Virus record (IMG/VR): IMGVR_UViG_3300029305_001653
Coordinates: 32,001 to 96,000 of that record
Reading direction: 5' to 3' (one strand)
Length of the DNA stretch: 64,000 nucleotides
From: a virus
Lineage: Duplodnaviria > Caudoviricetes
The notes under the pieces are model-generated. The model saw only the letters and a list, made by a program, of their open reading frames with translations. It did not search any database and had not been told where the DNA came from. Below, one piece after another: positions 565-60,672 of the stretch (the first letter of the stretch is position 1; every line of letters starts with the position of its first letter). The translations under genes were made by a program, and so were the position numbers.

Positions 565-1674
565 ATGAATAGTATTAATAATATAGTGAAGAAGCTTCGA
601 GAAAATCGAATATTAAATGAGCGTGAGGACTATAGTAAGTATCCAAGAGATAAGTTAATCTCTCTAGCACAAGATGGAGATCAACTTGCTGTCGAGACTC
701 TTATCTCTACTCATGAAGATTTCATAAAGAGAATGAGTAGTAAGTACTTCCTAGGTAGTGGAGATAAAGAAGATGTGGAACAGATAGCTACTATTGCTTT
801 CTGGGATGCTATCAATACTTACGACCCTAAGATTAGTGGAGATTTCGAAGCTTATGCAGGTAGGACTATTAAACGTAGGATGTCTGATGAGATACGTAAA
901 GAAGCAACTGATAAACGTCAAGCTAATAACTTAGCTACTTCTCTTGATGAGCCTGTAGCTAGTGATGATGAAGGTGGAGAGAGTACTCTAGGTTCTACAT
1001 TATCTTCTCAGGTATCTACAGAAGAAGAGTATCTAGGAAAGTTTGGAGCTCGAGATATAATGAAGTTCATAGAGAATAACTTATCTGATACTGAAAGAGA
1101 AGTTATAAAGAAGTATATTCAAGGTTATAAAATCCCTGAGATAGTGGAGGAGATGGACATGAAGTATAAGAGTGTAGAGAATGCTATCTTGAGAGTGAAG
1201 AATAAACTTGCAGAGCATATGAGAAGATCTCACAGTGAGTCAAAGAAACTGAAAGAGGATAATTCCTTAGAGTTCACAGAAGAAGAGAAGCAGGTACTCT
1301 CTAGCATCTTCGGTAAGATAGAGGAGAAAATTTCTATCAGTGAATCTGTACGTAGTGAGCTTGCAGCTACTTATGAGAAGTATACAGAAGAGCAGTTCGA
1401 TTATGAATTAGAAGATATCGAGGATGATGTAGAGGAGATATTATCCGAGTTAGAGGATACTGACTATGATAGCAGAGATGATCTAATTGATTCTTTAGGA
1501 GATCTAAGAGTTAAGCTCTTGACTATGGAGGAGTTCCTGAGTGATGAGCAATATGAAGTATCAGAGAAAATATTAAGTAATATTCGTAATGCCGAGAATG
1601 TAGAATTCAGAGGAGATACTCCTGACGTAGATCCTTACAGAGATAGAGGATTACGTCAGTCAGATTTTGTATAA
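565..1674 (+). CDS. Sigma-70 family RNA polymerase sigma factor, SigH-like, with N-terminal leader and acidic C-terminal extension
   Basis: LISLAQDGDQLAVETL, SKYFLGSGDKEDVEQ..IAFWDAINTYD (region 2), SLDEPV, LSDTEREVIKKYIQGYKIPEIVEEMDMKYKSVENAILRVKNKL (region 4, close to the SigH KSIDNALQRVKRKL pattern); GGAGG RBS. Confidence 0.9.
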   Translation: MNSINNIVKKLRENRILNEREDYSKYPRDKLISLAQDGDQLAVETLISTHEDFIKRMSSKYFLGSGDKEDVEQIATIAFWDAINTYDPKISGDFEAYAGRTIKRRMSDEIRKEATDKRQANNLATSLDEPVASDDEGGESTLGSTLSSQVSTEEEYLGKFGARDIMKFIENNLSDTEREVIKKYIQGYKIPEIVEEMDMKYKSVENAILRVKNKLAEHMRRSHSESKKLKEDNSLEFTEEEKQVLSSIFGKIEEKISISESVRSELAATYEKYTEEQFDYELEDIEDDVEEILSELEDTDYDSRDDLIDSLGDLRVKLLTMEEFLSDEQYEVSEKILSNIRNAENVEFRGDTPDVDPYRDRGLRQSDFV

Positions 1675-4651: not shown

Positions 4652-5599
4652 ATGAATTGTATATCTGAGATACTGCAATCTCTCAGAGAAAGTAGGGTCA
4701 GAGAAACTGTATTCGTCTATAAAGGTGCAGAGTATGAGAATAGATATGGGAATTATTATAGAAATCATAAACCTATCTCTAAGAAAGAGTATCATATTGC
4801 TCGGAGAGGGATACTATCTCAGAAAGACACACAAGGTACTATAGAGTATAGATTGAATTTACCTTACAAAGAATTCGCTAAGAAGATAGAGGATTTTCAA
4901 GAATTCATAGATGAGCTAGAGTATGACAAGGAGTACGAATTACCTAGAGAGACAAGAGGTCATCTTCCTAGGATAGATCCTTATGATGAGTATGAGAGAG
5001 TAGCTCAGATCATGGAAGATACTCAGATGTCTAAATTTGAAGCTTCTCAGGTAAATGATATCCTTTCTAGATATACATCTACTGATAGTTATACTACATT
5101 CTCAGATGAAGAAAAAGAGCTGTTAGATACTTACATAGATACTTCACCTATTTACTCTCCTCCTCCTGTATATAGAGGATTAGGGTTTAGAAAAAGATTA
5201 GGAGACGATAGTCTTAGTGGGTATAAATTGTTCTTAGATTTAGAAGAAGGTAGTGTAATTTCCTCTGAGAATTATTCATCTTTCAGTAGTAATCTTGATG
5301 TTGCAGTAGCATTTGCGAGTACTCACGGAGACTATCATGTGTACATCGTTAATACTAAGAATTTGTCTGGAGTAAGTATAGACCATTTATCTTCTATAGA
5401 CTACAATGAAGATGAGTTAATTTACAAAGCTAATACTAATATGACTGTCTTGAAGAAATTAGTGAAAGACAATATAGTTTATCTTCACGTTATAGAGTCT
5501 CCTATAGAAGAAGATTCAGAGGAAGAGATAATAAAAGTACCTCTACAAGGTAGTATGTTTATAGAGGAAGGAAGAAATTATGCGAGAAATCATAGATAG
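4652..5599 (+). CDS. R-S-E clade ADP-ribosyltransferase (Alt/ModA/VIP2-like) with leader MNCISEILQSLRESRVRE
   Basis: PVYRG, NYSSFSSNLDVAVAFA, GVSIDHLS, NEDELI (ExE, typical of arginine-specific ARTs). Confidence 0.8.
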   Translation: MNCISEILQSLRESRVRETVFVYKGAEYENRYGNYYRNHKPISKKEYHIARRGILSQKDTQGTIEYRLNLPYKEFAKKIEDFQEFIDELEYDKEYELPRETRGHLPRIDPYDEYERVAQIMEDTQMSKFEASQVNDILSRYTSTDSYTTFSDEEKELLDTYIDTSPIYSPPPVYRGLGFRKRLGDDSLSGYKLFLDLEEGSVISSENYSSFSSNLDVAVAFASTHGDYHVYIVNTKNLSGVSIDHLSSIDYNEDELIYKANTNMTVLKKLVKDNIVYLHVIESPIEEDSEEEIIKVPLQGSMFIEEGRNYARNHR

Positions 5600-6080
5600 A
5601 CTAAGGACTAGTCGTATAGACGAAGCTAGGAAGAAAGTAGCTTTAGAAGCTCTAGCTACAGAGTTAAAAGATAAGTTATCTAAAGTAGAAGGTTACTCTC
5701 ATCATAAATTATCTATATCTCCGAACTACGATGAAGGATGCGTAGATGTACTATTCAGAGGTACTGATGATGCTTTTAGAGTATACCCTCAGAAGACTAA
5801 GATCTCTAATGAGAATTCTAATAAAGTAATATCTGTATCTTCTATAGATGGAGCTTATATATTAGGTACTAAAGTATATGATGAGGAAGGTAATTTGTTA
5901 GGAGAAGCTTTAGTAAGAACAAAAGCTGTACATAACAAATCAGATTACTCTGAGGACTTAACAAAAGCTGAGTATCGTTTTAATTCTAAGATTACTAATC
6001 TTCAGAAGTTAGAAAAGTATATAGCTAGGGAAGCTATTAATAATATGGAAAAGAACTCTAGAAAGAGAAGGGATTCTTAG
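5580..6080 (+). CDS. Hypothetical protein with leader MREIIDRLRTSRIDE (putative internal head protein)
   Basis: ORF plus shared leader motif. Confidence 0.55.
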   Translation: MREIIDRLRTSRIDEARKKVALEALATELKDKLSKVEGYSHHKLSISPNYDEGCVDVLFRGTDDAFRVYPQKTKISNENSNKVISVSSIDGAYILGTKVYDEEGNLLGEALVRTKAVHNKSDYSEDLTKAEYRFNSKITNLQKLEKYIAREAINNMEKNSRKRRDS

Positions 6081-6107
6081 TTGTATCACGTATTATAATA
6101 ATGTAAG
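6069..6107 (+). promoter_or_regulatory. Conserved bipartite phage promoter, copy 2
   Basis: AGGGATT-N12-ACGTATTATAATAATGTAAG followed by TAAGG-GAAA-CCTTA hairpin. Confidence 0.85.
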
Positions 6108-6952: not shown

Positions 6953-8641
6953 GTGAAGATGGGATTATTCAGTAAATCTAAGAAGCCTACTCAATCAAAC
7001 TCTCTCCCTGATGAAGCTTCTCTTCTGAAATATATAGCTAATCTGACTCCTGAAGATATAGATCTTCTGAAAGATGCAGCTATCAATAGATACAATGTAA
7101 ACCCTGAAGAGAGAAGTAAATCTTTAACAGATTATTTTAATCTGTTAAATTCTGTATTTAACAATGTTAATTTCAACTCTACAGGAAATACTCCTCATAC
7201 TAGAAATCAAAGGTATGAGATATATGATGAGATGGATGAGAGTACAGCGTATATCTCTTCTGCACTAGATATCCTTTCTGATGACGCTACACAAGCAGAT
7301 GAAGAAGGTATTATCATACATATTAAGTCTGAGTCAGCTAAGATACAGACTTTAGTCTCTGAATTCTTCGAAGAATTCGAGATAGAAGATAAAATATCTA
7401 AGTGGACAAGAGCAGTTGCGAAGTACGGAGATCTATTCATCAAGGTAGGAGGAGAGTACGGAAGAGGAGTAACTCATGTTAATGATACTATCTATCCTAG
7501 TATCATTGAACGTAGAGATCTGAATGGTAAATTAGTAGCTTTTTCTAATAGTCAAGATTCTGTCTACTCTAATACAGACTTGTACGCTCCTTGGGAGTTC
7601 ATACATTTTAGACACAAGGGAGATATCTATAAGGAAGAGAGTACTCATACACGACTAGGGAATAATGATGATACATTCGATAAGAATTTAACATCTGCGT
7701 ATGGACAGTCTATACTACGTCCAGCTATAAAAGTATACGCTCAGTTAAGATTCGTCGAGAATATGATTCTTCTTTCTCGATTGACTAATAGTATTCGTAG
7801 AAATATATTTTTAATCAATGTAGGAGATGTATCTCCTGATAAAGCTTTTGAGACTATATCTAATTATGCTCGATTATTAAAAAAGGATATTAATTTAAAT
7901 ATTGAAGAAGGTATATACTCATCTTCCAAGCATACTGTAAATTATGATGAAGATATCTTCATTCCTGTAGGAGATCCTCAGAATGATGTACGTATAGAGT
8001 CTGTAGGAGGAGAAGTTAATATACAGGAGCAGTATGATTTAGAGTACCTACTAAATAAATTATTTTCTGCATTAAAAGTCCCTAAAGCTTATCTGAACTA
8101 TGAACAAGATCTAAATGCAAGATCTACTCTCATACAATTAGATATACGATATGCAAGATCAGTAAGTCAGTTACAGACTACTATGACTGCAGGATTACGT
8201 AGATTAGTTAAGATTCATTTAGCTTATCTAGGACTGAACCCAGATGAAGTAGATTTAGATATCACATTGACTCCTGTCTCTGCTATAGATGAAGAAGCTA
8301 GAGCAGAACAGCAGCAAAAACAGATATCTAATGCAAGAGACATGTGGGACGTATTAACTTCTATGAGAGATGGTATAGGAGAGACTGCAGAGCCTATGAA
8401 TATATCAGAAGCTGCAGAGCATATTATGAGTAAGTACCTTGAGTTAGACAAGTCTATTATAGATAAAATCTTTAATAGAGAGTCTGATATAAATCCTCCT
8501 ACTAGAGTATTCAGTCATAGAGAGTATAGAGGTACAGACTATAATGCTATGTATCCGTCTACTAGCAATCAGGAAAGATATGAGCAAATTAGAGAGTCTT
8601 TAATAGACTCTAAAATTAATAATACAGAACAAATTCACTAA
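6953..8641 (+). CDS. Portal protein (T4 gp20-like)
   Basis: RYEIYDEMD..ISSALDILSDDA, HFR, YGQSILRPA, ENMILLSRL..RNIFLINVG, LFSALKVPKAYL; position after terminase. Confidence 0.88.
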   Translation: MKMGLFSKSKKPTQSNSLPDEASLLKYIANLTPEDIDLLKDAAINRYNVNPEERSKSLTDYFNLLNSVFNNVNFNSTGNTPHTRNQRYEIYDEMDESTAYISSALDILSDDATQADEEGIIIHIKSESAKIQTLVSEFFEEFEIEDKISKWTRAVAKYGDLFIKVGGEYGRGVTHVNDTIYPSIIERRDLNGKLVAFSNSQDSVYSNTDLYAPWEFIHFRHKGDIYKEESTHTRLGNNDDTFDKNLTSAYGQSILRPAIKVYAQLRFVENMILLSRLTNSIRRNIFLINVGDVSPDKAFETISNYARLLKKDINLNIEEGIYSSSKHTVNYDEDIFIPVGDPQNDVRIESVGGEVNIQEQYDLEYLLNKLFSALKVPKAYLNYEQDLNARSTLIQLDIRYARSVSQLQTTMTAGLRRLVKIHLAYLGLNPDEVDLDITLTPVSAIDEEARAEQQQKQISNARDMWDVLTSMRDGIGETAEPMNISEAAEHIMSKYLELDKSIIDKIFNRESDINPPTRVFSHREYRGTDYNAMYPSTSNQERYEQIRESLIDSKINNTEQIH

Positions 8642-8670: not shown

Positions 8671-10245
8671 ATGAGACGTAATAAACTTTTAGAATCTTTG
8701 AGTGCTAAATCTCAGGAGAATACAATGTTCAGAAGATATAATCTATCTGAGATTATATCTGAGAGTTACAAGACTCTCTACGATAGTGAGAGAGGATCTA
8801 ATCTCCAGAAGCTAGTAGAAGCACATCTCGAAGATGTAAGGAACAATCCTACAGATATTGATAGACTTTCTCGTCAGTTATGCAATCTAAAATATTTATC
8901 GATGATGGTAGAGTCTAAAAAGATGGAGGATGAAGAGCTTTTAGTCCCTGAAGAGGAGTATAGTAAAGTAGTTCCTGACGAGACTATAGAAGAGTCGAAA
9001 GAGGCAGAAGAGAAAGAGGTAGTAGAGGAAAATGACAAAACAGTTGCAGGAGATATAGAACTCTCTGATGAAGAATTAGAGGAATTAGCTAAGCATCTAG
9101 AAGAGATTCGTAAGAATAAGAAAACTAATGAGTCTTCTAGACCTCGTAGATTGAAGAAGTTAGGAGAAGCAGAGGTCTCAGGGTATACCTGGGATAGTGA
9201 GTGGTCTAAAGAATATGGACTCTCTGGACGTACAAAGTATTATATCAATAGAGGAGAATCTCTTGATAATCAGATTATAGGTACTATTTATGAGCCTGAT
9301 GGTGAAGAGTTTTTAGACTACGGTGTTGATATCTACGATACTCGTAAAAATGATATATTAGCAGGTACAGGTTATGATGAAGATGCTAATAGTTTTAGTT
9401 CGGAAGAAGAAGCTAAAAGATGGGTAGAGAATTGGTTCTCTAAAAATCTGAAAGAATCTTCTAGACCTCGTAGATTGAAGAGAACTAATGAATCTTCTTC
9501 ATGGGATAGAATTCCCTTGACTGAGTTCAAGAAGAAGTCGGCTACTAAGGCTTTCGTGAAGACATTCAGAAAGCTAGATAGTAAATTGCGTGAAGGTGCA
9601 GCACTAACTCGTCAAGAGTCTATTGCTCTTTATAAAGCAGCTAATTCTGCTATGACTCAACTCTCCGTAGAGTTAGAATACAATCCTGAATTCCTTAATA
9701 CATTCAGAGAATCTACACAGCTCCTTTCTGTAGATGTATCTAAGTTATTAGGTAGCTTAATGGAAGGTAAAGCTCCTAGTAAAGCTACTATGAAGTCTTT
9801 AGCTAAATTCTCTGAAGCTCTCCTCTATGAAGAGGAAGAAGAGGAGTTACCTCCTATCGAAGACGAAGATGTTAATTCCTCTGAAGAGTCTGAGGAGTTT
9901 GATCAGGAGTATGCAGAGGCGAGAGTAGAGTTACATAAAGAGTTAGCTAAAGAACATGAAGATTCTGAAGATCCTGATGTCCAAGAGAAACTCTCTCAGG
10001 ATGCAGAGGAAGTAACATCTTTACCTGGAATCACTGAGGAGCAAGTTGCTGAGATCGTAGGAGAAGAAGAATCAGAAGAAGAAGAAGCTCCTGTAGAAGA
10101 TGAATCTGACTCAGAGCTAGAAGAGGAAGAAGATATTACAGATGAGGAATTAGCTGCTCTCAAGAAACATCTCAAAGAGATGAGAGACACTAAGAAGAAT
10201 CCTGTAGAAGAGTCTACTAAACCTCGTAAATTACTTAAGAGGTAA
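8671..10245 (+). CDS. Prohead core/scaffold-like acidic polyprotein with many x-x-E-S sites
   Basis: Between portal and protease; very Glu-rich; repeated (T/L)xESSRPRRLK and DEEL..L.KHL.E.R units. Confidence 0.6.
   Translation: MRRNKLLESLSAKSQENTMFRRYNLSEIISESYKTLYDSERGSNLQKLVEAHLEDVRNNPTDIDRLSRQLCNLKYLSMMVESKKMEDEELLVPEEEYSKVVPDETIEESKEAEEKEVVEENDKTVAGDIELSDEELEELAKHLEEIRKNKKTNESSRPRRLKKLGEAEVSGYTWDSEWSKEYGLSGRTKYYINRGESLDNQIIGTIYEPDGEEFLDYGVDIYDTRKNDILAGTGYDEDANSFSSEEEAKRWVENWFSKNLKESSRPRRLKRTNESSSWDRIPLTEFKKKSATKAFVKTFRKLDSKLREGAALTRQESIALYKAANSAMTQLSVELEYNPEFLNTFRESTQLLSVDVSKLLGSLMEGKAPSKATMKSLAKFSEALLYEEEEEELPPIEDEDVNSSEESEEFDQEYAEARVELHKELAKEHEDSEDPDVQEKLSQDAEEVTSLPGITEEQVAEIVGEEESEEEEAPVEDESDSELEEEEDITDEELAALKKHLKEMRDTKKNPVEESTKPRKLLKR
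9133..9481 (+). repeat. Perfect 25-bp direct repeat (9133-9157 and 9457-9481) flanking an in-frame 108-codon module
   Basis: TCTTCTAGACCTCGTAGATTGAAGA twice, 324 bp apart. Confidence 0.9.
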
Positions 10246-10256
10246 GTAAGAGGAGT

Positions 10257-10643
10257 ATGGAGTATATAGTTAGGCGTCTAATAGAGTCTCGTAGACTCGA
10301 AGAAGCTAGAGGAGATACGACATTAAGACAAACTCTTGAGATATTAGCTGATGAATTTAATATAGAGAATTATGACTCTACTATAGAGTACTGCCTTCAT
10401 CATAAAAATGGTAACCATGATGAAAATAAGTTATACAATCTAGTACTTATGCCTAGTAGACGTCACAATAGTTATCATACTAAACTCAATCGTAGAGGTA
10501 TAGATAAACAGTCTAAAGAAGCTCTAGAACTCTTCGATAAAGAGTATGCAAACGACTGTGTATTCGTAGGAGAATTTCTTTACAGTAAGTTGATATTAGC
10601 TACTCAAGAAGTAAAAACAGCAGATAGTGAATGTCTAGAATAA
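10257..10643 (+). CDS. HNH-motif protein with leader MEYIVRRLIESRRLEE
   Basis: LHHKNGNHDENKLYNLVLMPSRRHNSYH is a beta-beta-alpha-Me HNH motif. Confidence 0.75.
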   Translation: MEYIVRRLIESRRLEEARGDTTLRQTLEILADEFNIENYDSTIEYCLHHKNGNHDENKLYNLVLMPSRRHNSYHTKLNRRGIDKQSKEALELFDKEYANDCVFVGEFLYSKLILATQEVKTADSECLE

Positions 10644-10744: not shown

Positions 10745-11860
10745 TTGCAGCTTGTAGAAAAATCTATAGGTCCTTTATCAACTCAAGGAAAGAAAATCTT
10801 ATCAGGACTTTTTGCTGAGCTAGGTACACTTAATCAAAATGGCAGACGCTATCCTGATGACATATACGAATCTGCGTATGAAGAGTTGATACCAAAGATA
10901 AAAGATAAAAGATTGTTAGGTGAATTAGATCACCCTGTAGACTACGATGAAGTTAGATTATCTAATGTTTCTCATGTCATTACAGACTGTGAGATTCTAG
11001 AAGATCAAGGAGTCAAGAAAGTATATGGCTCTGTCGAATTATTAGATACTCCAGCTGGATTGATAGCTCAGTCTTTAGTAGAAGCAGGTATTCCTTTAGG
11101 CATCTCTTCTAGAGGAGTAGGCTCTACAAGACAAGTAAGAGATGGAGTAGAAGTTACTGACTTAAAACTTATCACTTATGATTTAGTAGCTGATCCGTCA
11201 TTTGCTAATGCGGTACTTTCTCCAGATCAGTCTAAAAAATTATCAGATAGTCTAGAATACATTGAGTCTAAACTACCTCTAAATGAATCTTTAGAGCATA
11301 ATAGCATAAGAGATATGATACATAATATTCGTGAATCTCTCATTAGTAAGAAGACTACTCCTACTAAAGAGATTAGTATAAATAAAGCAGAGACTGATAA
11401 TCTAAAAAGATTATTAGAGACTGCAGAGTCTACTATTAAATCAGATACAGAGAAGATGATAGAGTCTCGTAAAGAGATTAAATCTTTGAGAAGAGAGCTC
11501 ATGAGTGCTAATAAGAAGTATGAAAGCTTATTAGAAAATATGTTTAATCTACAAGAAGATTATAATAGATTGAAAGAAGCCTCTACCTATAAAGAAAAGA
11601 TTAATTCTCTTGAGCTAGAAATCGTAGAGCTAAGAAAAAATTTAGCTGTTGAAAAGAGAGGTATGTCGTACTCTCAAGTATCTGAATTACTAGAAGGAGC
11701 TAATACTATAGATGAAATCGAGAATAGACTGAATTCTCTATCTTCTGTAGGACGGAAACGTCAGACTACCATCAATATACAGTCTAATACTTTGACTGAG
11801 AGTACTAAGACTGAAAATCCTAGATTGTCTGGATTAGCTGCTATAGTATCTAGAGTTTAG
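10745..11860 (+). CDS. Prohead protease (T4 gp21-like) with C-terminal coiled-coil scaffold-like region
   Basis: NQNGRRYP, LGELDHP, VSH, GISSRGVGS, YDLVADPS. Confidence 0.92.
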   Translation: MQLVEKSIGPLSTQGKKILSGLFAELGTLNQNGRRYPDDIYESAYEELIPKIKDKRLLGELDHPVDYDEVRLSNVSHVITDCEILEDQGVKKVYGSVELLDTPAGLIAQSLVEAGIPLGISSRGVGSTRQVRDGVEVTDLKLITYDLVADPSFANAVLSPDQSKKLSDSLEYIESKLPLNESLEHNSIRDMIHNIRESLISKKTTPTKEISINKAETDNLKRLLETAESTIKSDTEKMIESRKEIKSLRRELMSANKKYESLLENMFNLQEDYNRLKEASTYKEKINSLELEIVELRKNLAVEKRGMSYSQVSELLEGANTIDEIENRLNSLSSVGRKRQTTINIQSNTLTESTKTENPRLSGLAAIVSRV

Positions 11861-11880: not shown

Positions 11881-13386
11881 ATGAAGTTCAATAATAACAA
11901 GACTCTCGCTGAGAGTGTAATTATGAGAGGTCTTGATCTCTCTGAGTCTCGTAGATGGAAAGACTACACAACTGCTATCCGTGAAGGTTACAAGCAGAAG
12001 CACAAGTCTTCTATTCCGGACAATATCATCGCTACTACTGCTACTCTTCTTGAGAATACTTATCAGTATGCAGCTCGTATGGATGAAACAACTAGAGCAG
12101 TAAATCTCGGTACTTTCATCGACTATGGTTTCGATGTTATCTCCGCTACTGTTCCTAACCTTATCGCTCATGATATCGTATCCGTTCAGCCTATGAACGC
12201 TAAGCATGGTGCTATCTTCTATCTCCAGTACCTCTACGGTAACAACAAGGGTACTATCACTGCAGGTACTGAGATGAATTCTCCGTTCACTGGTATCAAT
12301 GGTAACTCCTTCAACTTCTCTAATGACGTAGTTGATGGTGAGTCCATTGGTCTTGGTGATGGTGCTACTACATCTTTCTCTACTACATTAGGTTACACTC
12401 CTGTACGTTCAGGTGCTACTGTAATTTATGTAGGCGGTGTTGAAGTTGCTAGAGTAGTTAGCTCTGCAAATGGTGTAGATACACTCGCAGCAATCGCTGG
12501 TTCTGGTGTATCGGGTACTGTAAACTTAGCTACTGGTGAAATTTCTCTTACTCTTGCAAATGCTCCTGCAGCAGATGCAGCAATCACTGCAGTTTATCGT
12601 TATGATATGGATCTAACTACTGTAGGTTACTCTCAGGTAGATCTTGATCTCGCTTCTATCTCTCTTGAAGCATTCCCGAGAAAGCTTCGTGCTCGTTGGC
12701 TCCTTGATGCTGGCTTCGAACTTCAGAAGATGAAGGGTATCGATGCTGAGTCTGAACTTGTTACTGCTATGAGCAATGAGATCAAGTTTGAAATCGATGG
12801 TGAGCTTCTCAAGGAACTCTATGCTAAGGCTGCTTGGACTGGATTCACTTGGGACTGCCAGATGCCTGGTAATCAGCTTAGCTACATGGAATACAAGCGT
12901 ACTATTATCGATCTCTTTACTGAAATGAGTAATAAGATCTTCACTGGTACAAAGCGTGTAGGTGCAAACTTCATTGTAGCTGGTGTTAATGTATGTAATA
13001 TCATTGAGACACTTCCTGAGTTCTCTGCTGATAACCTTGGTACTAAGTCTATCAATGGTCCTCACAAGATCGGTCGTCTCTCTAACAAGTGGGATGTTTA
13101 CAAGAATCCGTTCTACAATGACAACAACTTCGTACTTGGTTACAAGGGTAGCTCTTGGTTAGATGCTGGTTTCGTATACGCTCCTTACATGCCTCTCTAC
13201 GCTACTCCGACTCAGGTACTTGATGACTTCATCTTCCGTAAGGGTCTTGCTACTTCTTATGGTCAGGTGATGCTCAACAACAAGCTCTATGCTAAGGGTA
13301 GTATTACTAACTTCACTGCATCTCGTATGGTTAGTGATGCACTCACTGTTTCTCCTGCAGAAGGCTCTATCTGGGCTAATGCTTAA
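11881..13386 (+). CDS. Major capsid protein (T4 gp23-like)
   Basis: PNLIAHDIVSVQPM, RKLRARW, ELVTAMSNEIKFEID, GYKG..DAGFVYAPYMPL; high-expression codon bias. Confidence 0.95.
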   Translation: MKFNNNKTLAESVIMRGLDLSESRRWKDYTTAIREGYKQKHKSSIPDNIIATTATLLENTYQYAARMDETTRAVNLGTFIDYGFDVISATVPNLIAHDIVSVQPMNAKHGAIFYLQYLYGNNKGTITAGTEMNSPFTGINGNSFNFSNDVVDGESIGLGDGATTSFSTTLGYTPVRSGATVIYVGGVEVARVVSSANGVDTLAAIAGSGVSGTVNLATGEISLTLANAPAADAAITAVYRYDMDLTTVGYSQVDLDLASISLEAFPRKLRARWLLDAGFELQKMKGIDAESELVTAMSNEIKFEIDGELLKELYAKAAWTGFTWDCQMPGNQLSYMEYKRTIIDLFTEMSNKIFTGTKRVGANFIVAGVNVCNIIETLPEFSADNLGTKSINGPHKIGRLSNKWDVYKNPFYNDNNFVLGYKGSSWLDAGFVYAPYMPLYATPTQVLDDFIFRKGLATSYGQVMLNNKLYAKGSITNFTASRMVSDALTVSPAEGSIWANA

Positions 13387-19941: not shown

Positions 19942-19980
19942 AGGGAATTAAGATAATTCCACGTATTATAATAATGTAAG
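19942..19980 (+). promoter_or_regulatory. Conserved bipartite phage promoter, copy 3
   Basis: AGGGAAT-N12-ACGTATTATAATAATGTAAG. Confidence 0.85.
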
Positions 19981-23372: not shown

Positions 23373-24932
23373 TTGAGTGTTCAAGATCAAATCTATCGTT
23401 ACGTAATTGATGAGTTAGGATTCAATCATGCTATAGCTTGTGGTATATTAGCTAATGCTCAAGCAGAGTCTGGATTTAGACCTAATGCTGTAGGAGATAG
23501 TGGAGATGCTTACGGACTATTCCAGTGGAACTCTAGAAGAGAGGAGCTATTCTCCTATGCAGGGACTAGAAGTCCTTCTGTAGCTCAACAATTAGAGTTC
23601 CTCGGATATGAACTTTACAATTCTGAGTATGTTGCTAGATCTCATATAGAGGATTTAGAAGATACTAGAGATGGAGCATACGAAGCAGGATATAATTTCT
23701 GCGTATATTATGAACGTCCATCTAATAAAGAAGAGAAAGGTGATATTAGAGGGAAAGCAGCTCAGACTCTATTTGATAGATATACACCTACATCCTCTCC
23801 TGTTAGCTCTAAAGGAAAGAGTATCGTGTCTATAGCTCGCACAGTAGTTGAGAAGAAAATCCCTTATATCAAGGGAGAGTCTTTGTATGACAATGATCAG
23901 AGAGGTACAGATAGTCCTGGACTAGTTTACTACGCTTACAGAGAAGCTGGAGTAGATATACAAGAGTATTCAGCTAGTGAGTATTACTACAAGTATAAAG
24001 ATAGAGCTAGGAAAGTCACTACTTCTGAATTAGCTCCTGGAGATTTACTATTCTATGATTACCACAATCAAATAATTGATGTAGCTATAGCTACAGGTGA
24101 GGGTACTCGTATCTACTCTAAAGAAGGAGTAGGTGTAATAGAAGAGACTAGTATAGGTAGTCCTATATATGTTTTGAGATTACTCTCTAGTGCTGAAACC
24201 TCTATAGGAAGAGATTCAGAGGCTACTCATACTCCAGGGTTCGAGTCTATATCTCCAGAGGAGTATATTGCACTCTCTTCTCTAGATTTTAATGCTGCTA
24301 AAGTAGCTAGTAGATTATCAGAATTATCTACTACAGGATTTGATTATGGTTATCTCATAGATATTACTCATAATGAAGAGTTTAGATTTTATATACCTGA
24401 ATTCTCTGAACAAGCAGGAGCTCAATGGAGTGATGTAGAGATAAGAGGGAGATCTGTCTCTGTGAAGTCTTATGAGTCTACTAACTCTAGAGTAGTGAGT
24501 CTATCTTTAGACCTATATGCAGGTGTAGGTCTTTACGCTCCTACCTCAGGAGAGAGCAAGGAAGAAACTTTAGATAGAATGTACAAGGATATAAATTTTG
24601 TGAAATCCTTAGAATATCCTGACTACTCTAATCCTATCATCAAACCTCCTCCTACAGTACACTTAATACTAGGTCCTACTCTGAGTATAGTAGGCGTAAT
24701 TAGTAATGTGAGTGTGGAGCATCTCAAACCTTTTGATGAACAGAAGAGAGCTATGTATGTGAAATTGAATTTCACAGTTACACAGATAGCTGTTAATCCT
24801 CCAGATTATAGAGATATTAGATCAGGTCCGACTTCTGCACTTAGTACTTCAAATACAGCTTCTCTTTATACTGCAGGTACTACGATAGAAGGAGACCCTA
24901 CTAATGTACCTACTTACTCAGAAGGAGAGTGA
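23373..24932 (+). CDS. Tail lysozyme (Phage_lysozyme2-like) + degenerate NlpC/P60 + tube-initiator-like domain
   Basis: GILANAQAESG..YGLFQW..R, YERP; GTDSPGLVYYAY and LAPGDLLF; C-terminal YPDY..PPTVHLILG. Confidence 0.75.
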   Translation: MSVQDQIYRYVIDELGFNHAIACGILANAQAESGFRPNAVGDSGDAYGLFQWNSRREELFSYAGTRSPSVAQQLEFLGYELYNSEYVARSHIEDLEDTRDGAYEAGYNFCVYYERPSNKEEKGDIRGKAAQTLFDRYTPTSSPVSSKGKSIVSIARTVVEKKIPYIKGESLYDNDQRGTDSPGLVYYAYREAGVDIQEYSASEYYYKYKDRARKVTTSELAPGDLLFYDYHNQIIDVAIATGEGTRIYSKEGVGVIEETSIGSPIYVLRLLSSAETSIGRDSEATHTPGFESISPEEYIALSSLDFNAAKVASRLSELSTTGFDYGYLIDITHNEEFRFYIPEFSEQAGAQWSDVEIRGRSVSVKSYESTNSRVVSLSLDLYAGVGLYAPTSGESKEETLDRMYKDINFVKSLEYPDYSNPIIKPPPTVHLILGPTLSIVGVISNVSVEHLKPFDEQKRAMYVKLNFTVTQIAVNPPDYRDIRSGPTSALSTSNTASLYTAGTTIEGDPTNVPTYSEGE

Positions 24933-24937
24933 AGTAA

Positions 24938-25288
24938 TTGAATACTAGAGAGTTCTATGAAGAGTCAAAGAATTCTTCGAAATCTTACTCAGATAGATAC
25001 AAGAATTGTAAAATATTGAAAGACATAGAGACGAAAGAAGTATTACTGTCTACGAGGGAGATAGTAGATATACCTAGTCATCCTAATGATTTATATCATA
25101 GAGTGAAATCTAATGAAGTATCTAGATTAGATTTACTAGCTCACAAGTATTATAGCAATCCTCTACTATGGTGGGTGATAGCTCAAGCTAATGATATCTA
25201 TGACCCGATGACTATGTTACTACCAGGTACTCTATTGAGGATACCTTCTCTAGAAGTACTGTATGGTAATAATGGAATACTTCTATAG
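24938..25288 (+). CDS. Baseplate wedge LysM-like protein (gp53-like)
   Basis: RLDLLAHKYYSNPLLWWVIAQAN..PGTLLRIP. Confidence 0.85.
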   Translation: MNTREFYEESKNSSKSYSDRYKNCKILKDIETKEVLLSTREIVDIPSHPNDLYHRVKSNEVSRLDLLAHKYYSNPLLWWVIAQANDIYDPMTMLLPGTLLRIPSLEVLYGNNGILL

Positions 25289-51900: not shown

Positions 51901-51939
51901 AGGGAAATAGAATTTTATCACGTATTATGATAATGTAAG
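51901..51939 (+). promoter_or_regulatory. Conserved bipartite phage promoter, copy 4
   Basis: AGGGAAA-N12-ACGTATTATGATAATGTAAG. Confidence 0.8.
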
Positions 51940-51979
51940 GAAGAACCTCATCGTGAAATTAACTTAAAGGAGTACATCT

Positions 51980-52585
51980 ATGAATAACAACATTGACTGG
52001 AAAGAGATAGAAGATAAAATAGCTATCATCTGTTACAAATTTAGTAACTTATCTTCATACCATGAAGATTTAGCACAAGAGCTTAGAATCCACGCCTACT
52101 ATGTCTCAGATAATTATTATGACTTGTATCGTAAAGCTATAGACTTCTGGAGAAAGTTACAATCTAGACAGTCTCCTGAAGTTCCTTACTTTGATTTAGA
52201 ACTTTTAGGAGGTTCCTATTCCATGGAGAAAGAAGCTACAGATCAGTTTAACGATATAGTATTTCTTATCCGTAAGGAATTAAATAGATTTCCTCAGAGT
52301 AAGTGGGATAGTAATAAGATAGACGTAGCTACGAAACTTTTAGATATCATCTTAGAAGATATAGACCCTAAGAAGGTAGAAGGTAATTCTGATATAGTAG
52401 GAGATTCTAATCTTAACCACTATATCAATCATAGACTAAATTTATCATGGGTTTCTGAAGAGACAGGTATCGGATATAAACAGATAGTTATGGCTATGAA
52501 ACTCTTAGAAGATATAGTTAGAGGATTACATGCTATGAAGAAGATAGAGATTCCTTTAGAGTATTTCCAGGGATACTACGAATAA
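51980..52585 (+). CDS. Divergent sigma-70-like factor (region 2 and region 4-like HTH)
   Basis: HEDLAQEL..RKAIDFWRK (region 2-like); LSWVSEETGIGYKQIVMAMKLL (HTH). Confidence 0.55.
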   Translation: MNNNIDWKEIEDKIAIICYKFSNLSSYHEDLAQELRIHAYYVSDNYYDLYRKAIDFWRKLQSRQSPEVPYFDLELLGGSYSMEKEATDQFNDIVFLIRKELNRFPQSKWDSNKIDVATKLLDIILEDIDPKKVEGNSDIVGDSNLNHYINHRLNLSWVSEETGIGYKQIVMAMKLLEDIVRGLHAMKKIEIPLEYFQGYYE

Positions 52586-58799: not shown

Positions 58800-58838
58800 A
58801 GGGATTCTTGAAGATATCACGTATTATAATAATGTAAA
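58800..58838 (+). promoter_or_regulatory. Conserved bipartite phage promoter, copy 5
   Basis: AGGGATT-N12-ACGTATTATAATAATGTAAA. Confidence 0.85.
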
Positions 58839-58864: not shown

Positions 58865-60649
58865 ATGAAGACTTACAATGATGAGAGTATTAAAGTACTT
58901 TCTGATATAGAGCATATCCGTACTCGTCCTACTATGTATATCTCTACTGAGAGACCTTCATATCAAATGTGGACTGAGATAGCTGATAATGCTGTAGATG
59001 AAGCTATGAATGGATATGCTTCAGAGATTGTTTTTGAAATTGATTTCATTAATAATTATATATGTGTAGAAGATAATGGTAGAGGACTTCCTCAAGGCAG
59101 GAATGAAGAACTTGGTAAGCCTACTATCTTTGCTATTTACCAGAAACTCAACGCAGGTGGTAAATATGATCAAGATTCTTACGCTATGAGCGGAGGTTTA
59201 AATGGAGTAGGTAGTACAGTTGTAAATGCTCTATCTAAAGAATTCCATGTATTTTCTTGGAGAGACGGATCTTGTATTACAGCTGACTTTGAGTATGGTG
59301 AGACTGTAGGATCTAATATTCCATTCCATGATCCTCAGTATAACAAGAAATCAGGTACTAGAGTATTCTATCGTATTGATACTGAACATTCTCTTTTCAC
59401 TGACAAACTTTCCGACTATGAACAAGACATTATTAATAAAGTACGTCTTTTGAAAACTTTGATGCCTAAAGTCAAAATTATCTATAATAATGAAGAGATT
59501 CAAGCTAGAGATTTTAGAGAATTCCTTCAGTTATCTAAAGAACCTTTACTAGATAATTCTATACTTATAGAGTGCAAAGACTATTCTGTAGCATTGAATT
59601 GGTCTAAAGATACTAATAAAAGTACACAAATTTCTTATTGCAATAGTATTTTTACTCCTAATGGAGGAGATCACGTCAATGGTATTCATAACGCATTGAT
59701 AGATATATTTGGTACTGATAGTATGTATGGTCTCAATATAGCACTTTCAGTTAAATATCCTAGAGTAGAATTCGATAGCCAAGCTAAGACTAAAGCAATT
59801 TCTAAGGATATGAAATCATATCTTACAGAGAACTTCAGTACAGAATTCAAGTCTTATCTTCGTAAGTATCCTGATATTAAAGAGTCTATCTCTAAGTTAA
59901 TTGCATATAAGAGAAATGAACTTAATAAACGTAATAACAAGAGTAATGTACGTAGAGATAGGAAGAGTACATTCTTAAATACCTTAGGAGTCTCTGGATT
60001 CGCAGACTGTAATTGCAGTGATAGATCAGGAGCTGAATTGTATATAGTAGAAGGTAATTCAGCTGCAGGTTCTGCTAAACAAGCTAGGGATGTTGAGACA
60101 CAAGCTGTTATGCCATTAAGAGGTAAAGTACTCAATGTATTGAATTCTGATATGAAGTCTATCCTGAACAATAAAGAAATTGCGACTATTTATGCAAATC
60201 TTGATACAGGTATTATGGAAGACTTCAATATTAAGAAATCTCGTTATAGTAAAGTAATTATATTTACAGATGCGGATGAGGATGGCAAAAACATAGCAGC
60301 ATTGTTGATTACTCTCTTCGCTACATTATCTCCTGAATTGATAGATTCAGGTTATCTTTACTTAGCTCTTCCTCCACTCTATGGTACATATGAAGGTAAG
60401 AAATTCATCCCTATAAATGATGAAGAAACTAAGAATGAGTATCTCAGTAAAGGATACTCTATCACAAGATATAAAGGACTCGGTGAGATGAATCCTGAGC
60501 AACTTCGTATCTCTTGTATGGATCCTAGTACTAGAGTATTGATTAGATTGGATAGATCTCCTGAATGCTCTCATAGGATACAGCAAGTCATGGGTTCAGA
60601 TACTTCTTTTCGAAGAAAACTTCTTCAAGAAGAAGGGATTCTAGTATAG
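58865..60649 (+). CDS. Type IIA DNA topoisomerase subunit B (GyrB/ParE-like)
   Basis: EIADNAVDE, DNGRG, GGLNGVG, EGNSA, PLRGK, DADEDG, RYKGLGEM. Confidence 0.95.
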   Translation: MKTYNDESIKVLSDIEHIRTRPTMYISTERPSYQMWTEIADNAVDEAMNGYASEIVFEIDFINNYICVEDNGRGLPQGRNEELGKPTIFAIYQKLNAGGKYDQDSYAMSGGLNGVGSTVVNALSKEFHVFSWRDGSCITADFEYGETVGSNIPFHDPQYNKKSGTRVFYRIDTEHSLFTDKLSDYEQDIINKVRLLKTLMPKVKIIYNNEEIQARDFREFLQLSKEPLLDNSILIECKDYSVALNWSKDTNKSTQISYCNSIFTPNGGDHVNGIHNALIDIFGTDSMYGLNIALSVKYPRVEFDSQAKTKAISKDMKSYLTENFSTEFKSYLRKYPDIKESISKLIAYKRNELNKRNNKSNVRRDRKSTFLNTLGVSGFADCNCSDRSGAELYIVEGNSAAGSAKQARDVETQAVMPLRGKVLNVLNSDMKSILNNKEIATIYANLDTGIMEDFNIKKSRYSKVIIFTDADEDGKNIAALLITLFATLSPELIDSGYLYLALPPLYGTYEGKKFIPINDEETKNEYLSKGYSITRYKGLGEMNPEQLRISCMDPSTRVLIRLDRSPECSHRIQQVMGSDTSFRRKLLQEEGILV

Positions 60650-60672
60650 TCCACGTATTATACTAATGTAAG
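60634..60672 (+). promoter_or_regulatory. Conserved bipartite phage promoter, copy 6 (overlaps last codons of topo B)
   Basis: AGGGATT-N12-ACGTATTATACTAATGTAAG. Confidence 0.82.

Follow-up and report, generated by a model that had tools for sequence, protein, structure and literature searches.

The internal proteins packaged in the head of bacteriophage T4 are diverse and have only a capsid targeting sequence in common (PMC3012670). In IPI–III and in Alt, this sequence is a short N-terminal tag that ends in the pattern [L/I]-x-E and is found across otherwise unrelated proteins. These proteins are cleaved by the gp21 prohead protease and leave the capsid together with the DNA. Other phages carry transcription machinery, as represented by the virion RNA polymerases of N4 and of the phiKZ type. 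In virions of the Salmonella phage Arash, 24 unique sigma-factor peptides were detected alongside the phage RNA polymerase; the authors also allow for carry-over and describe no targeting tag (PMC10585845). What N4, phiKZ and Arash have in common is the idea of a phage that supplies the infected cell with a transcription specificity of its own. In this study, a sigma factor gene located in the head-gene block of an uncultured tailed phage was analyzed (positions 565 to 1674). The stretch of DNA studied, hereafter referred to as the window, is 64,000 nucleotides long and represents bases 32001–96000 of the 112,222-base viral contig IMGVR_UViG_3300029305_001653. The first-pass annotation of this gene had proposed a virion-packaged, SigH-like sigma factor that is matured by proteolysis.

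The locus resembles T4 in several respects. Its short N-terminal tag occurs across unrelated proteins and ends in the same [L/I]-x-E pattern, its protease, portal and capsid protein belong to the families of gp21, gp20 and gp23, and a tagged probable ADP-ribosyltransferase parallels Alt. In contrast to T4, the cargo would be a sigma factor, and the tag I-V-K-K-L-R-E-N-R appears to differ from the T4 sequence. N4, phiKZ and Arash carry a polymerase, whereas no match to the beta-subunit family was found here, so that delivery would be limited to the specificity subunit, with the core enzyme coming from the host. Furthermore, some known sigma factors are controlled in their activity by an N-terminal peptide that can be removed (pro-sigma-E and pro-sigma-K) or by a fused C-terminal domain (ECF41 and ECF42). 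Unlike the pro-sequences of pro-sigma-E and pro-sigma-K, the phage leader is also found on non-sigma proteins, and the likely protease is the prohead protease and not SpoIIGA or SpoIVFB. Unlike the extensions of ECF41 and ECF42, the C-terminal module of the phage protein is a mobile acidic helical bundle without similarity to SnoaL or tetratricopeptide repeat (TPR) extensions. In the literature, including virion proteomes that list sigma factors, no description of a targeting tag on a sigma factor was found, nor was a sigma factor found described there as T4-type packaged cargo.

Our preferred explanation, to which we attach roughly an even chance, is that the gene encodes the main sigma factor of the phage, which works with the host core polymerase and also travels as T4-style capsid cargo: the prohead protease would trim it, and on ejection it would seed its regulon. 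The sigma core (about residues 21–225) would most likely direct the host polymerase to the promoter element AGGGAWT-N12-ACG(T/A)AT, and expression of the gene would be self-reinforcing, since a copy of this element is located 59 nucleotides before it. The first 13–20 residues, a tag found on otherwise unrelated head-block proteins, would bring part of the sigma pool into the prohead. There, the gp21-family protease would remove the tag by cutting after LRE13 and/or LNE20, and would probably also cut at HSE225-S and/or ISE260-S, separating a SigH-sized core from the C-terminal part. The trimmed sigma factor would then leave the capsid together with the DNA and seed the first round of transcription, including that of its own gene.

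Sigma core, leader tag and candidate cleavage sites

The sigma protein has the following anatomy, in which positions are those of the window and the confidence values (predicted local distance difference test, pLDDT) are those of an AlphaFold2 model built from 26 sequences (mean pLDDT 76; predicted template modelling score, pTM, 0.39):

565–1674, + strand: SigH-type phage sigma factor gene, 369 amino acids, with leader and C-terminal module; stop codon at 1672–1674
565–624, + strand: N-terminal leader, residues 1–20; amphipathic helix in which L11-R-E13-N-R and L18-N-E20 are candidate prohead-protease sites
646–942, + strand: sigma domain 2, residues 28–126 (core binding and −10 recognition); Pfam Sigma70_r2, pLDDT 80–91
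943–1014, + strand: acidic disordered linker between domains 2 and 4, residues 127–150; pLDDT below 50 at 126–150, with 6 acidic and 0 basic residues
1015–1230, + strand: sigma domain 4, residues about 151–222 (−35 recognition); Pfam Sigma70_r4_2 and GerE, aligned with 3mzy to residue 222
1231–1278, + strand: junction, residues 223–238, with HSE225-S226-K and LKE231-D; candidate cut freeing a SigH-sized core; pLDDT below 50 at 224–231
1279–1374, + strand: conserved helix, residues 239–270, EF-x-x-EEK-x-x-L, ending I258-S-E260-S; F237, E241, K242 and L245 nearly invariant
1375–1671, + strand: mobile acidic helical module, residues 271–369; helices 275–345 at pLDDT 80–94

Judged by sequence comparison, this open reading frame (ORF) is a real sigma factor of the SigH branch, but no SigH orthologue. 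The search recovered 50 homologues, most of them full length. The Pfam family Sigma70_r2 matched residues 46–114 (E 3e-12; 46.6 bits versus a cut-off of 24), and Sigma70_r4_2 matched residues 172–215 with a score just below its cut-off (E 1.3e-5; 25.2 versus 25.7 bits). The NCBIfam SigH models span residues 28–219 end to end (E 5e-28), and the profile of the sigma family matched the solved SigH structure 3mzy (E 1e-23) in an alignment running through residue 222. When the predicted structure was searched with Foldseek, the B. subtilis SigH model was the best match, the whole-model matches were sigma factors only, and a pro-sigma-K complex was among the structural matches. The equivalog level, however, was missed, with TIGR02859 reaching 97.8 bits versus a cut-off of 294.8 (about one third) and the PRK08295 models giving similar results. 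It is this end-to-end alignment, combined with scores far below the equivalog cut-offs, that places the protein in the SigH branch but outside the SigH orthologues.

Domains 2 and 4 of the phage sigma factor align end to end with SigH, the transition-state sigma factor of Bacillus and Clostridia, and in region 4.2 its recognition helix closely resembles that of bacterial SigH-like proteins. The phage protein differs from SigH by its 20-residue leader, by 146 extra C-terminal residues and by the location of its gene in a phage head-gene block. The bacterial SigH-like matches P0051 and P0052 (212–214 amino acids) contain neither leader nor tail and end at about E225. Thus, the intact SigH-like core proposed in the first-pass annotation was recovered, at about residues 21–225, by Pfam, NCBIfam, the 3mzy profile match and Foldseek. 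The leader ending in ILNE (residues 17–20), the sites HSE-S (223–226), LKE-D (229–232) and ISE-S (258–261), and a long acidic tail not expected in SigH (146 amino acids, residues 224–369) are likewise all present.

The leader was detected in all 26 aligned sigma homologues, in which I7, R12 and E13 are invariant. It represents the most conserved segment of the protein, with a mean pairwise identity of 64%, whereas domains 2 and 4 reach 50–56% and the tail 30%. The [L/I]xE pattern at leader positions 11–13 (LRE) is kept in 26 out of 26 sequences and that at positions 18–20 (LNE) in 23 out of 25. In the AlphaFold2 model, residues 3–18 form a helix at low confidence that is not packed on the sigma core.

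The leader is not restricted to the sigma factor. Its core, L-x-E-[S/N/G]-R, was found within the first 15 residues of six proteins of the genome versus 0.38 expected from shuffled proteins. Carriers amount to five out of 12 head-block ORFs versus one out of 119 other ORFs (Fisher p 1.5e-5). The five head-block carriers are mutually unrelated, comprising the sigma factor, ORF 1690, ORF 4652, ORF 5580 and the HNH-like ORF 10257. On the contigs of relatives, up to nine neighbouring genes encode the same tag, DUF5662 proteins being among them. Copies of the tag differ by synonymous codons (Ser TCT versus AGT; Arg CGA, AGA, AGG and CGT), indicating that selection acts on the peptide and not on the DNA. 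The tag as a DNA or RNA element or as a recombination scar was ruled out by these same codon differences.

Because it is common to unrelated proteins, exclusively N-terminal, clustered in the head block and under strong selection at the protein level, the leader appears to behave like a T4-type capsid-targeting and cleavage tag, a reading supported by comparison. By analogy with the targeting sequence of the T4 internal proteins and Alt, its functions most likely are loading, cleavage and release. Compared by eye with the T4 targeting sequence, the tag seems to have in common with it only an amphipathic helix with [L/I]xE behind it.

The T4 protease gp21 cuts after [L/I]-x-E and is not known to be active outside proheads. 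In the phage studied here, the N-terminal 70 residues of the capsid protein contain LAE-S, LSE-SR, IRE-G, LLE-N and MDE-T, of which LSE-SR is the exact form of the tag core. The protease and the scaffold-like ORF 8671, with 8 sites each, are among the proteins densest in [L/I]xE[S/N/G/A] sites, the mean of the genome being 0.48 per 100 amino acids; such density is as expected of a digested core. Furthermore, E-[S/N]-[R/K] is common to the tag (E13-N-R), the capsid protein (E22-S-R, residues 22–24) and the sigma linker (E225-S-K). Residues E225 and S226 are each conserved at a level of at least 90% within a stretch predicted to be disordered (224–231). A nearly invariant pair in such a stretch is what short linear motifs, cleavage sites among them, typically show. 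Cutting between E225 and S226 would yield a core as long as bacterial SigH. At ISE260-S, [LIVM]xE is kept in 19 out of 24 sigma sequences, with serine at the P1' position in 18.

Promoter family and C-terminal module

The sigma gene is preceded by a promoter-like element and a ribosome-binding site:

505–543, + strand: promoter of SigH geometry before the sigma gene, composed of AGGGATT (505–511), a 12-nucleotide spacer, ACGTAT (524–529) and the invariant TATAATAATGTAAG (530–543)
552–558: ribosome-binding site GAGGAGG, with the sigma ATG at 565; the promoter copy ends 22 nucleotides before the start-codon region

The genome contains 18 copies of the element AGGGAWT-N12-ACG(T/A)AT-TATAATAATGTAAGG, which without exception lie on the + strand and, with one exception, 50–290 nucleotides before a gene. 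Matches within the window numbered six versus 1.07 expected (505–543, 6069–6107, 19942–19980, 51901–51939, 58800–58838 and 60634–60672), and 12 more were found elsewhere in the genome. The six promoters counted in the first-pass annotation are therefore correct for the window, whereas the whole genome holds 18. Copies also precede genes for a helicase and a topoisomerase, small early-type genes, a second, faintly sigma-like gene and the portal-gene operon. An assignment of these promoters to an early class is not clearly justified, as the terminase and portal operons lie behind the same class.

SigH promoters combine a −35 element of the AGGA type with a GAAT −10 element at similar spacing. 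Relatives of the phage have ACGAAT instead of ACGTAT, and the copy before the sigma operon is kept; ACGAAT contains GAAT, as does the SigH −10 element. The phage promoters thus resemble those of bacterial SigH in their AGGA-type −35, their GAAT- or GTAT-type −10 and their SigH-like spacing. A perfect TATAAT follows downstream in every copy; no SigA −35 element at proper spacing to it was found in the promoter sequences. The near-invariant TATAATAATGTAAGG after the −10 is more conserved than the −35 element of the copies, and may represent a shared transcript 5' end or an overlapping second signal. Furthermore, a AACTTAAAGGAG leader was observed directly before the start codons of eight genes, mostly behind SigH-type promoters (for example, at window position 51962 and at genome positions 10478, 17350, 21617 and 29245), and looks like a shared translation initiation region.

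Promoters of the sigma-A type were not enriched, with 53 sigma-70-type sites versus 51.9 in shuffled sequence. The phage genome gave no match to the RNA polymerase beta-subunit family, for which positive controls were obtained in 14 genomes, and the phage therefore depends on the host core polymerase. A search for a single-subunit RNA polymerase found nothing, but its positive controls also remained without a match. It seems that the phage relies for the most part on a single class of phage-specific promoters, that of the sigma gene included, in which case the first sigma factor must come from host SigH or from the capsid. Behind the copy at 51901–51939, ORF 51980–52585 (201 amino acids) showed a faint Sigma70_r2 match (E 0.07) and may represent a late sigma factor in a cascade; relatives encode clearer extra sigma genes (L006 3969–4730 and L011 1059–1547).

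Residues 224–369 of the sigma protein comprise 146 amino acids with 45 aspartate and glutamate versus 17 lysine and arginine residues, corresponding to an isoelectric point of 4.07. In the AlphaFold2 model, four helices at residues 239–345 (pLDDT 80–94) are followed by a low-confidence C-terminal end, and the tail as modelled is folded, not loose. The first-pass annotation had envisaged processing in the prohead of a protein with an acidic tail. The leader with its gp21-type [L/I]xE, the encoded gp21-family protease and the conserved E-S in a disordered linker speak for such processing; the tail itself is a four-helix folded region whose last approximately 100 residues form a mobile module. 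No confident packing of the tail on the core was predicted (pTM 0.39), and a search of the structure atlas with the tail fold returned generic helical bundles only.

The module ends in a conserved peptide, DPY-x-x-RG-x-x-x-SDF, that was detected on no other protein of the genome or the fetched loci. A clamp-binding or other shared C-terminal peptide was ruled out on these grounds. Several sigma homologues stop at about residue 255–273, with P0032, P0035, P0040 and P0047 ending at the conserved helix, and other relatives possess different C-terminal domains. In L008, a TGA follows residue 260, and a separate ORF of 128 residues, which starts with TTG and has its own ribosome-binding site, encodes the rest of the tail. 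L011 has lost most of the tail to a deletion, and a remnant of the end peptide persists there out of frame.

An exhaustive search with the 128-residue ORF of L008 revealed eight stand-alone or differently fused copies of the module (P0059–P0066), whereas a word-index search for stand-alone tails of near-query length had returned the query's own cluster only. Three of these copies (P0059–P0061) are about 126–128 residues long and open with [I/F]RLAKKIL-x-x-x-GY (ILE in two). Four others carry a tag of their own, followed by a small domain resembling the N-terminus of ORF 4652. The opening peptide of P0059–P0061 is similar to the RQIELAKSILE-x-x-GY that is fused to the tag in small proteins of this genome (genome positions 23968–24321 and 24362–24970, upstream of the window) and of L006 (7937–8560, 8634–9032 and 14919–15344). 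This RQIELAKSILE-x-x-GY peptide may be another targeting or cleavage unit.

As deduced from these sequences, the acidic module is autonomous, mobile and often tagged itself, and with its conserved end peptide it is a new domain. Its fusion or adjacency to the sigma factor suggests a functional link, and its presence on sigma-less proteins argues against a purely sigma-specific role. A role as sigma partner or regulator, either as anti-sigma factor or as a DNA mimic comparable to region 1.1 of primary sigma factors, is our leading guess. The split and fused forms of sigma and module are compatible with an inhibitory domain, but are not specific to it.

Genome and head-gene block

An exact repeat of the first 126 bases of the contig is found near its end (genome positions 1–126 and 112059–112184, followed by a short inverted artefact), and for this reason the genome, of about 112 kb, is probably complete, although CheckV puts completeness at 69%. 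The head block is of the T4 type, with large terminase, gp20-family portal, scaffold-like ORF, Peptidase_S77 protease and gp23-family capsid protein. The sigma gene lies in this same block, two ORFs upstream of the large terminase gene, and its proposed placement in the head-packaging region behind a promoter copy is borne out by the surrounding genes:

28–504, + strand: protein with a second leader type, KKIIAE-AF...ISE-S, starting with MDTLKKIIAE-AF; weak PHROG and NCBIfam matches
1690–2694, + strand: tagged partner of the sigma factor, 334 amino acids, no assigned function; leader with LRESR; same order in L004, L006 and L010
2706–4631, + strand: large terminase subunit; weak PHROG terminase match, homologues in relatives with Pfam MJ0330_N and position kept
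4652–5599, + strand: tagged probable arginine ADP-ribosyltransferase, 315 amino acids; invariant motifs; PHROG 'minor head protein', E 6e-9
5580–6080, + strand: tagged basic protein, 166 amino acids, no assigned function; leader-bearing homologues in L004 and L006
6497–6877: protein with the second leader type, ...EEKIKE-AF, as in ORF 28–504
6953–8641, + strand: portal, gp20 family; Pfam Portal_T4, E 2.2e-41
8671–10245, + strand: scaffold-like protein after the portal gene, 524 amino acids; 8 [L/I]xE[S/N/G/A] sites
10257–10643, + strand: tagged HNH-like protein between scaffold-like ORF and protease gene, 128 amino acids; PHROG HNH endonuclease, E 9e-8; leader with LIESR
10745–11860, + strand: prohead protease, T4 gp21 family, with a C-terminal extension; Pfam Peptidase_S77, E 4.8e-15; PHROG head maturation protease, E 7e-40
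11881–13386, + strand: major capsid protein, gp23 family; Pfam Gp23, E 3.6e-56

The same gene order, from sigma and partner ORF through terminase, portal, scaffold-like ORF and protease to capsid protein, was seen in three long metagenomic contigs, the sigma proteins of which are 52–56% identical to that of the window. In the relative L011 (10192–13392), the terminase gene contains an intein bearing an HNH domain, the product being 1066 amino acids long versus 635–641 elsewhere. No near-identical cultured phage was found by megablast. The nearest cultured phages, as determined from the capsid protein, are Listeria phage LIS04, Bacillus phage SP-15 and vB_BceM-HSE3, with identities of 39–41%. 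The partner ORF 1690 and the ADP-ribosyltransferase ORF 4652 had no match in cultured phages by tblastn. Concerning the host, a scan of bacterial genomes gave one irrelevant match and a scan of viral contigs two loci only.

ORF 4652 is probably a tagged ADP-ribosyltransferase, recalling T4 Alt as an Alt-like injected enzyme. This identification was deduced from the residues R175, SFSS (210–213) and E253-x-E255, which are invariant in six homologues and correspond to an R/STS/ExE triad, and from its profile, which across these motifs weakly matched Vis and ExoT, two arginine ADP-ribosyltransferases. Its AlphaFold2 model was too poor for a structure search (pLDDT 49). The small N-terminal domain of ORF 4652 (about residues 18–55) recurs on the acidic-module proteins P0062–P0066. 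A packaged nuclease, such as the tagged HNH-like protein might be, would be unusual. ORF 28–504 additionally gave faint matches to Tpt1/KptA (RNA 2'-phosphotransferase of the ADP-ribosyltransferase fold), and by eye its leader type appears closer to the T4 targeting sequence than the main tag.

Packaging weighed against other explanations

Several observations weigh against a packaged sigma factor. The phage group has no cultured member and is known from sequence only. The head blocks of LIS04, SP-15 and HSE3 contain neither the leader tag nor a sigma gene, and published virion proteomes are not applicable for this reason. Three tagged or tag-like small ORFs lie in a region of small early-type genes, ISE260 is located inside a modelled helix, and [L/I]xE is a common tripeptide, so that the exact cut sites are guesses. 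The sigma factor was assigned to the 18 promoters by their SigH-like geometry only. Lying behind the promoter class of replication genes, it appears to be made for use in the same cell, and packaging is not needed to explain the gene. Host SigH might read the promoters and supply the first transcripts. Sigma factors in virion preparations have also been explained as carry-over (fRuSau02; PMC5618024).

These points would fit an ordinary phage sigma factor that is not packaged, with host SigH (or SigA via the TATAAT) starting the promoters and the phage protein amplifying their use, while the leader has another role as a common handle, for instance in timed turnover, in recognition by a chaperone or in the assembly of a cytoplasmic complex. 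We regard this as a real possibility, although we would sooner bet against it. Promoters of SigH geometry, with ACGAAT in relatives, are plausibly readable by host SigH, a perfect TATAAT follows every copy, the gene shares its promoter class with the topoisomerase and helicase genes, and the early-type region also has its tagged or tag-like ORFs. The carry-over verdict on fRuSau02 points the same way. A start by SigA, however, would have to do without a properly spaced −35 element. Moreover, an unpackaged sigma factor leaves unexplained why the protease-type motif of the tag also occurs at the N-terminus of the capsid protein, why tagged proteins are concentrated in the head block and, much like T4 cargo, include a probable ADP-ribosyltransferase and an HNH protein, and why no other part of the sigma factor is as conserved as the tag.

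Alternatively, the leader and/or the tail, acting as a built-in anti-sigma factor or DNA mimic, might keep the sigma factor inactive until cleavage activates it, travel in the virion being optional. Proteolytic activation of Firmicute sigma factors is established, and the pro-sigma-K complex among the structural matches, the highly acidic folded helical bundle of the tail and the nearly invariant E-S in the disordered linker are consistent with such a switch. The same applies to the fusion of sigma and tail in most relatives and their separate adjacent genes in L008, which is the usual layout of sigma and anti-sigma genes. We nevertheless consider it unlikely: a leader that is also found on non-sigma proteins is no sigma-specific pro-sequence, the tail module also occurs on sigma-less proteins and is largely lost in L011, and AlphaFold2 gave no confident tail–core packing. 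Since T4 gp21 is not known to act outside proheads, activation in the producing cell is improbable as well.

The first-pass annotation had also raised an effect on host dormancy. In a further explanation, a SigH mimic, together with a Spo0A-domain protein lacking the receiver, would rewire entry into sporulation rather than transcribe phage genes. Besides the SigH-type core, the phage encodes a receiver-less Spo0A C-terminal domain protein (genome positions 8127–8510, L016; Pfam Spo0A_C, E 1.7e-30), and homologues of SigH and of truncated spo0A have been reported from gut phages and read as dormancy control (PMC10294663). However, 18 matching promoters, one of them before the sigma gene, point to phage transcription as the main job, and the scores are far below the SigH equivalog cut-offs. 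Spo0A boxes were not enriched in the intergenic regions of the phage, where a single near-match in the sigma promoter is within chance. Accordingly, we hold this explanation to be very improbable. The Spo0A-domain gene fits an endospore-forming host and points to a Firmicute, but is no demonstration of an effect on dormancy.

Within the preferred explanation of a packaged and trimmed sigma factor, a stronger version describes a self-starting circuit. A few molecules of the capsid-delivered, trimmed sigma factor would seize the host core polymerase as the DNA enters and switch on the 18 promoters, that of the sigma gene among them, without any host sigma factor, and the cleavable acidic module would keep it silent or off the DNA until the prohead matures. 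We put this forward tentatively, as something that may well turn out otherwise. If true, it would add a third route by which transcription specificity can reach a cell, beside the modification of the polymerase (T4 Alt) and the injection of a whole polymerase (N4 and phiKZ).

A shared tag offers a route, from sequence only, to list the likely injected proteins of an uncultured phage family. In the present case, the likely set would include the sigma factor, the probable ADP-ribosyltransferase, the HNH protein and several proteins without assigned function. In addition, foreign proteins could perhaps be loaded into the capsids of Firmicute phages by means of the tag. If the sigma factor is indeed delivered from the capsid, the phage would achieve a cheap takeover of host transcription from the first second by shipping the specificity subunit only, which would explain a genome with almost only phage-specific promoters, one of them located before the sigma gene itself. 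Infection would then be independent of the growth-phase sigma levels of the host, which matters for hosts that are in stationary phase or sporulating.

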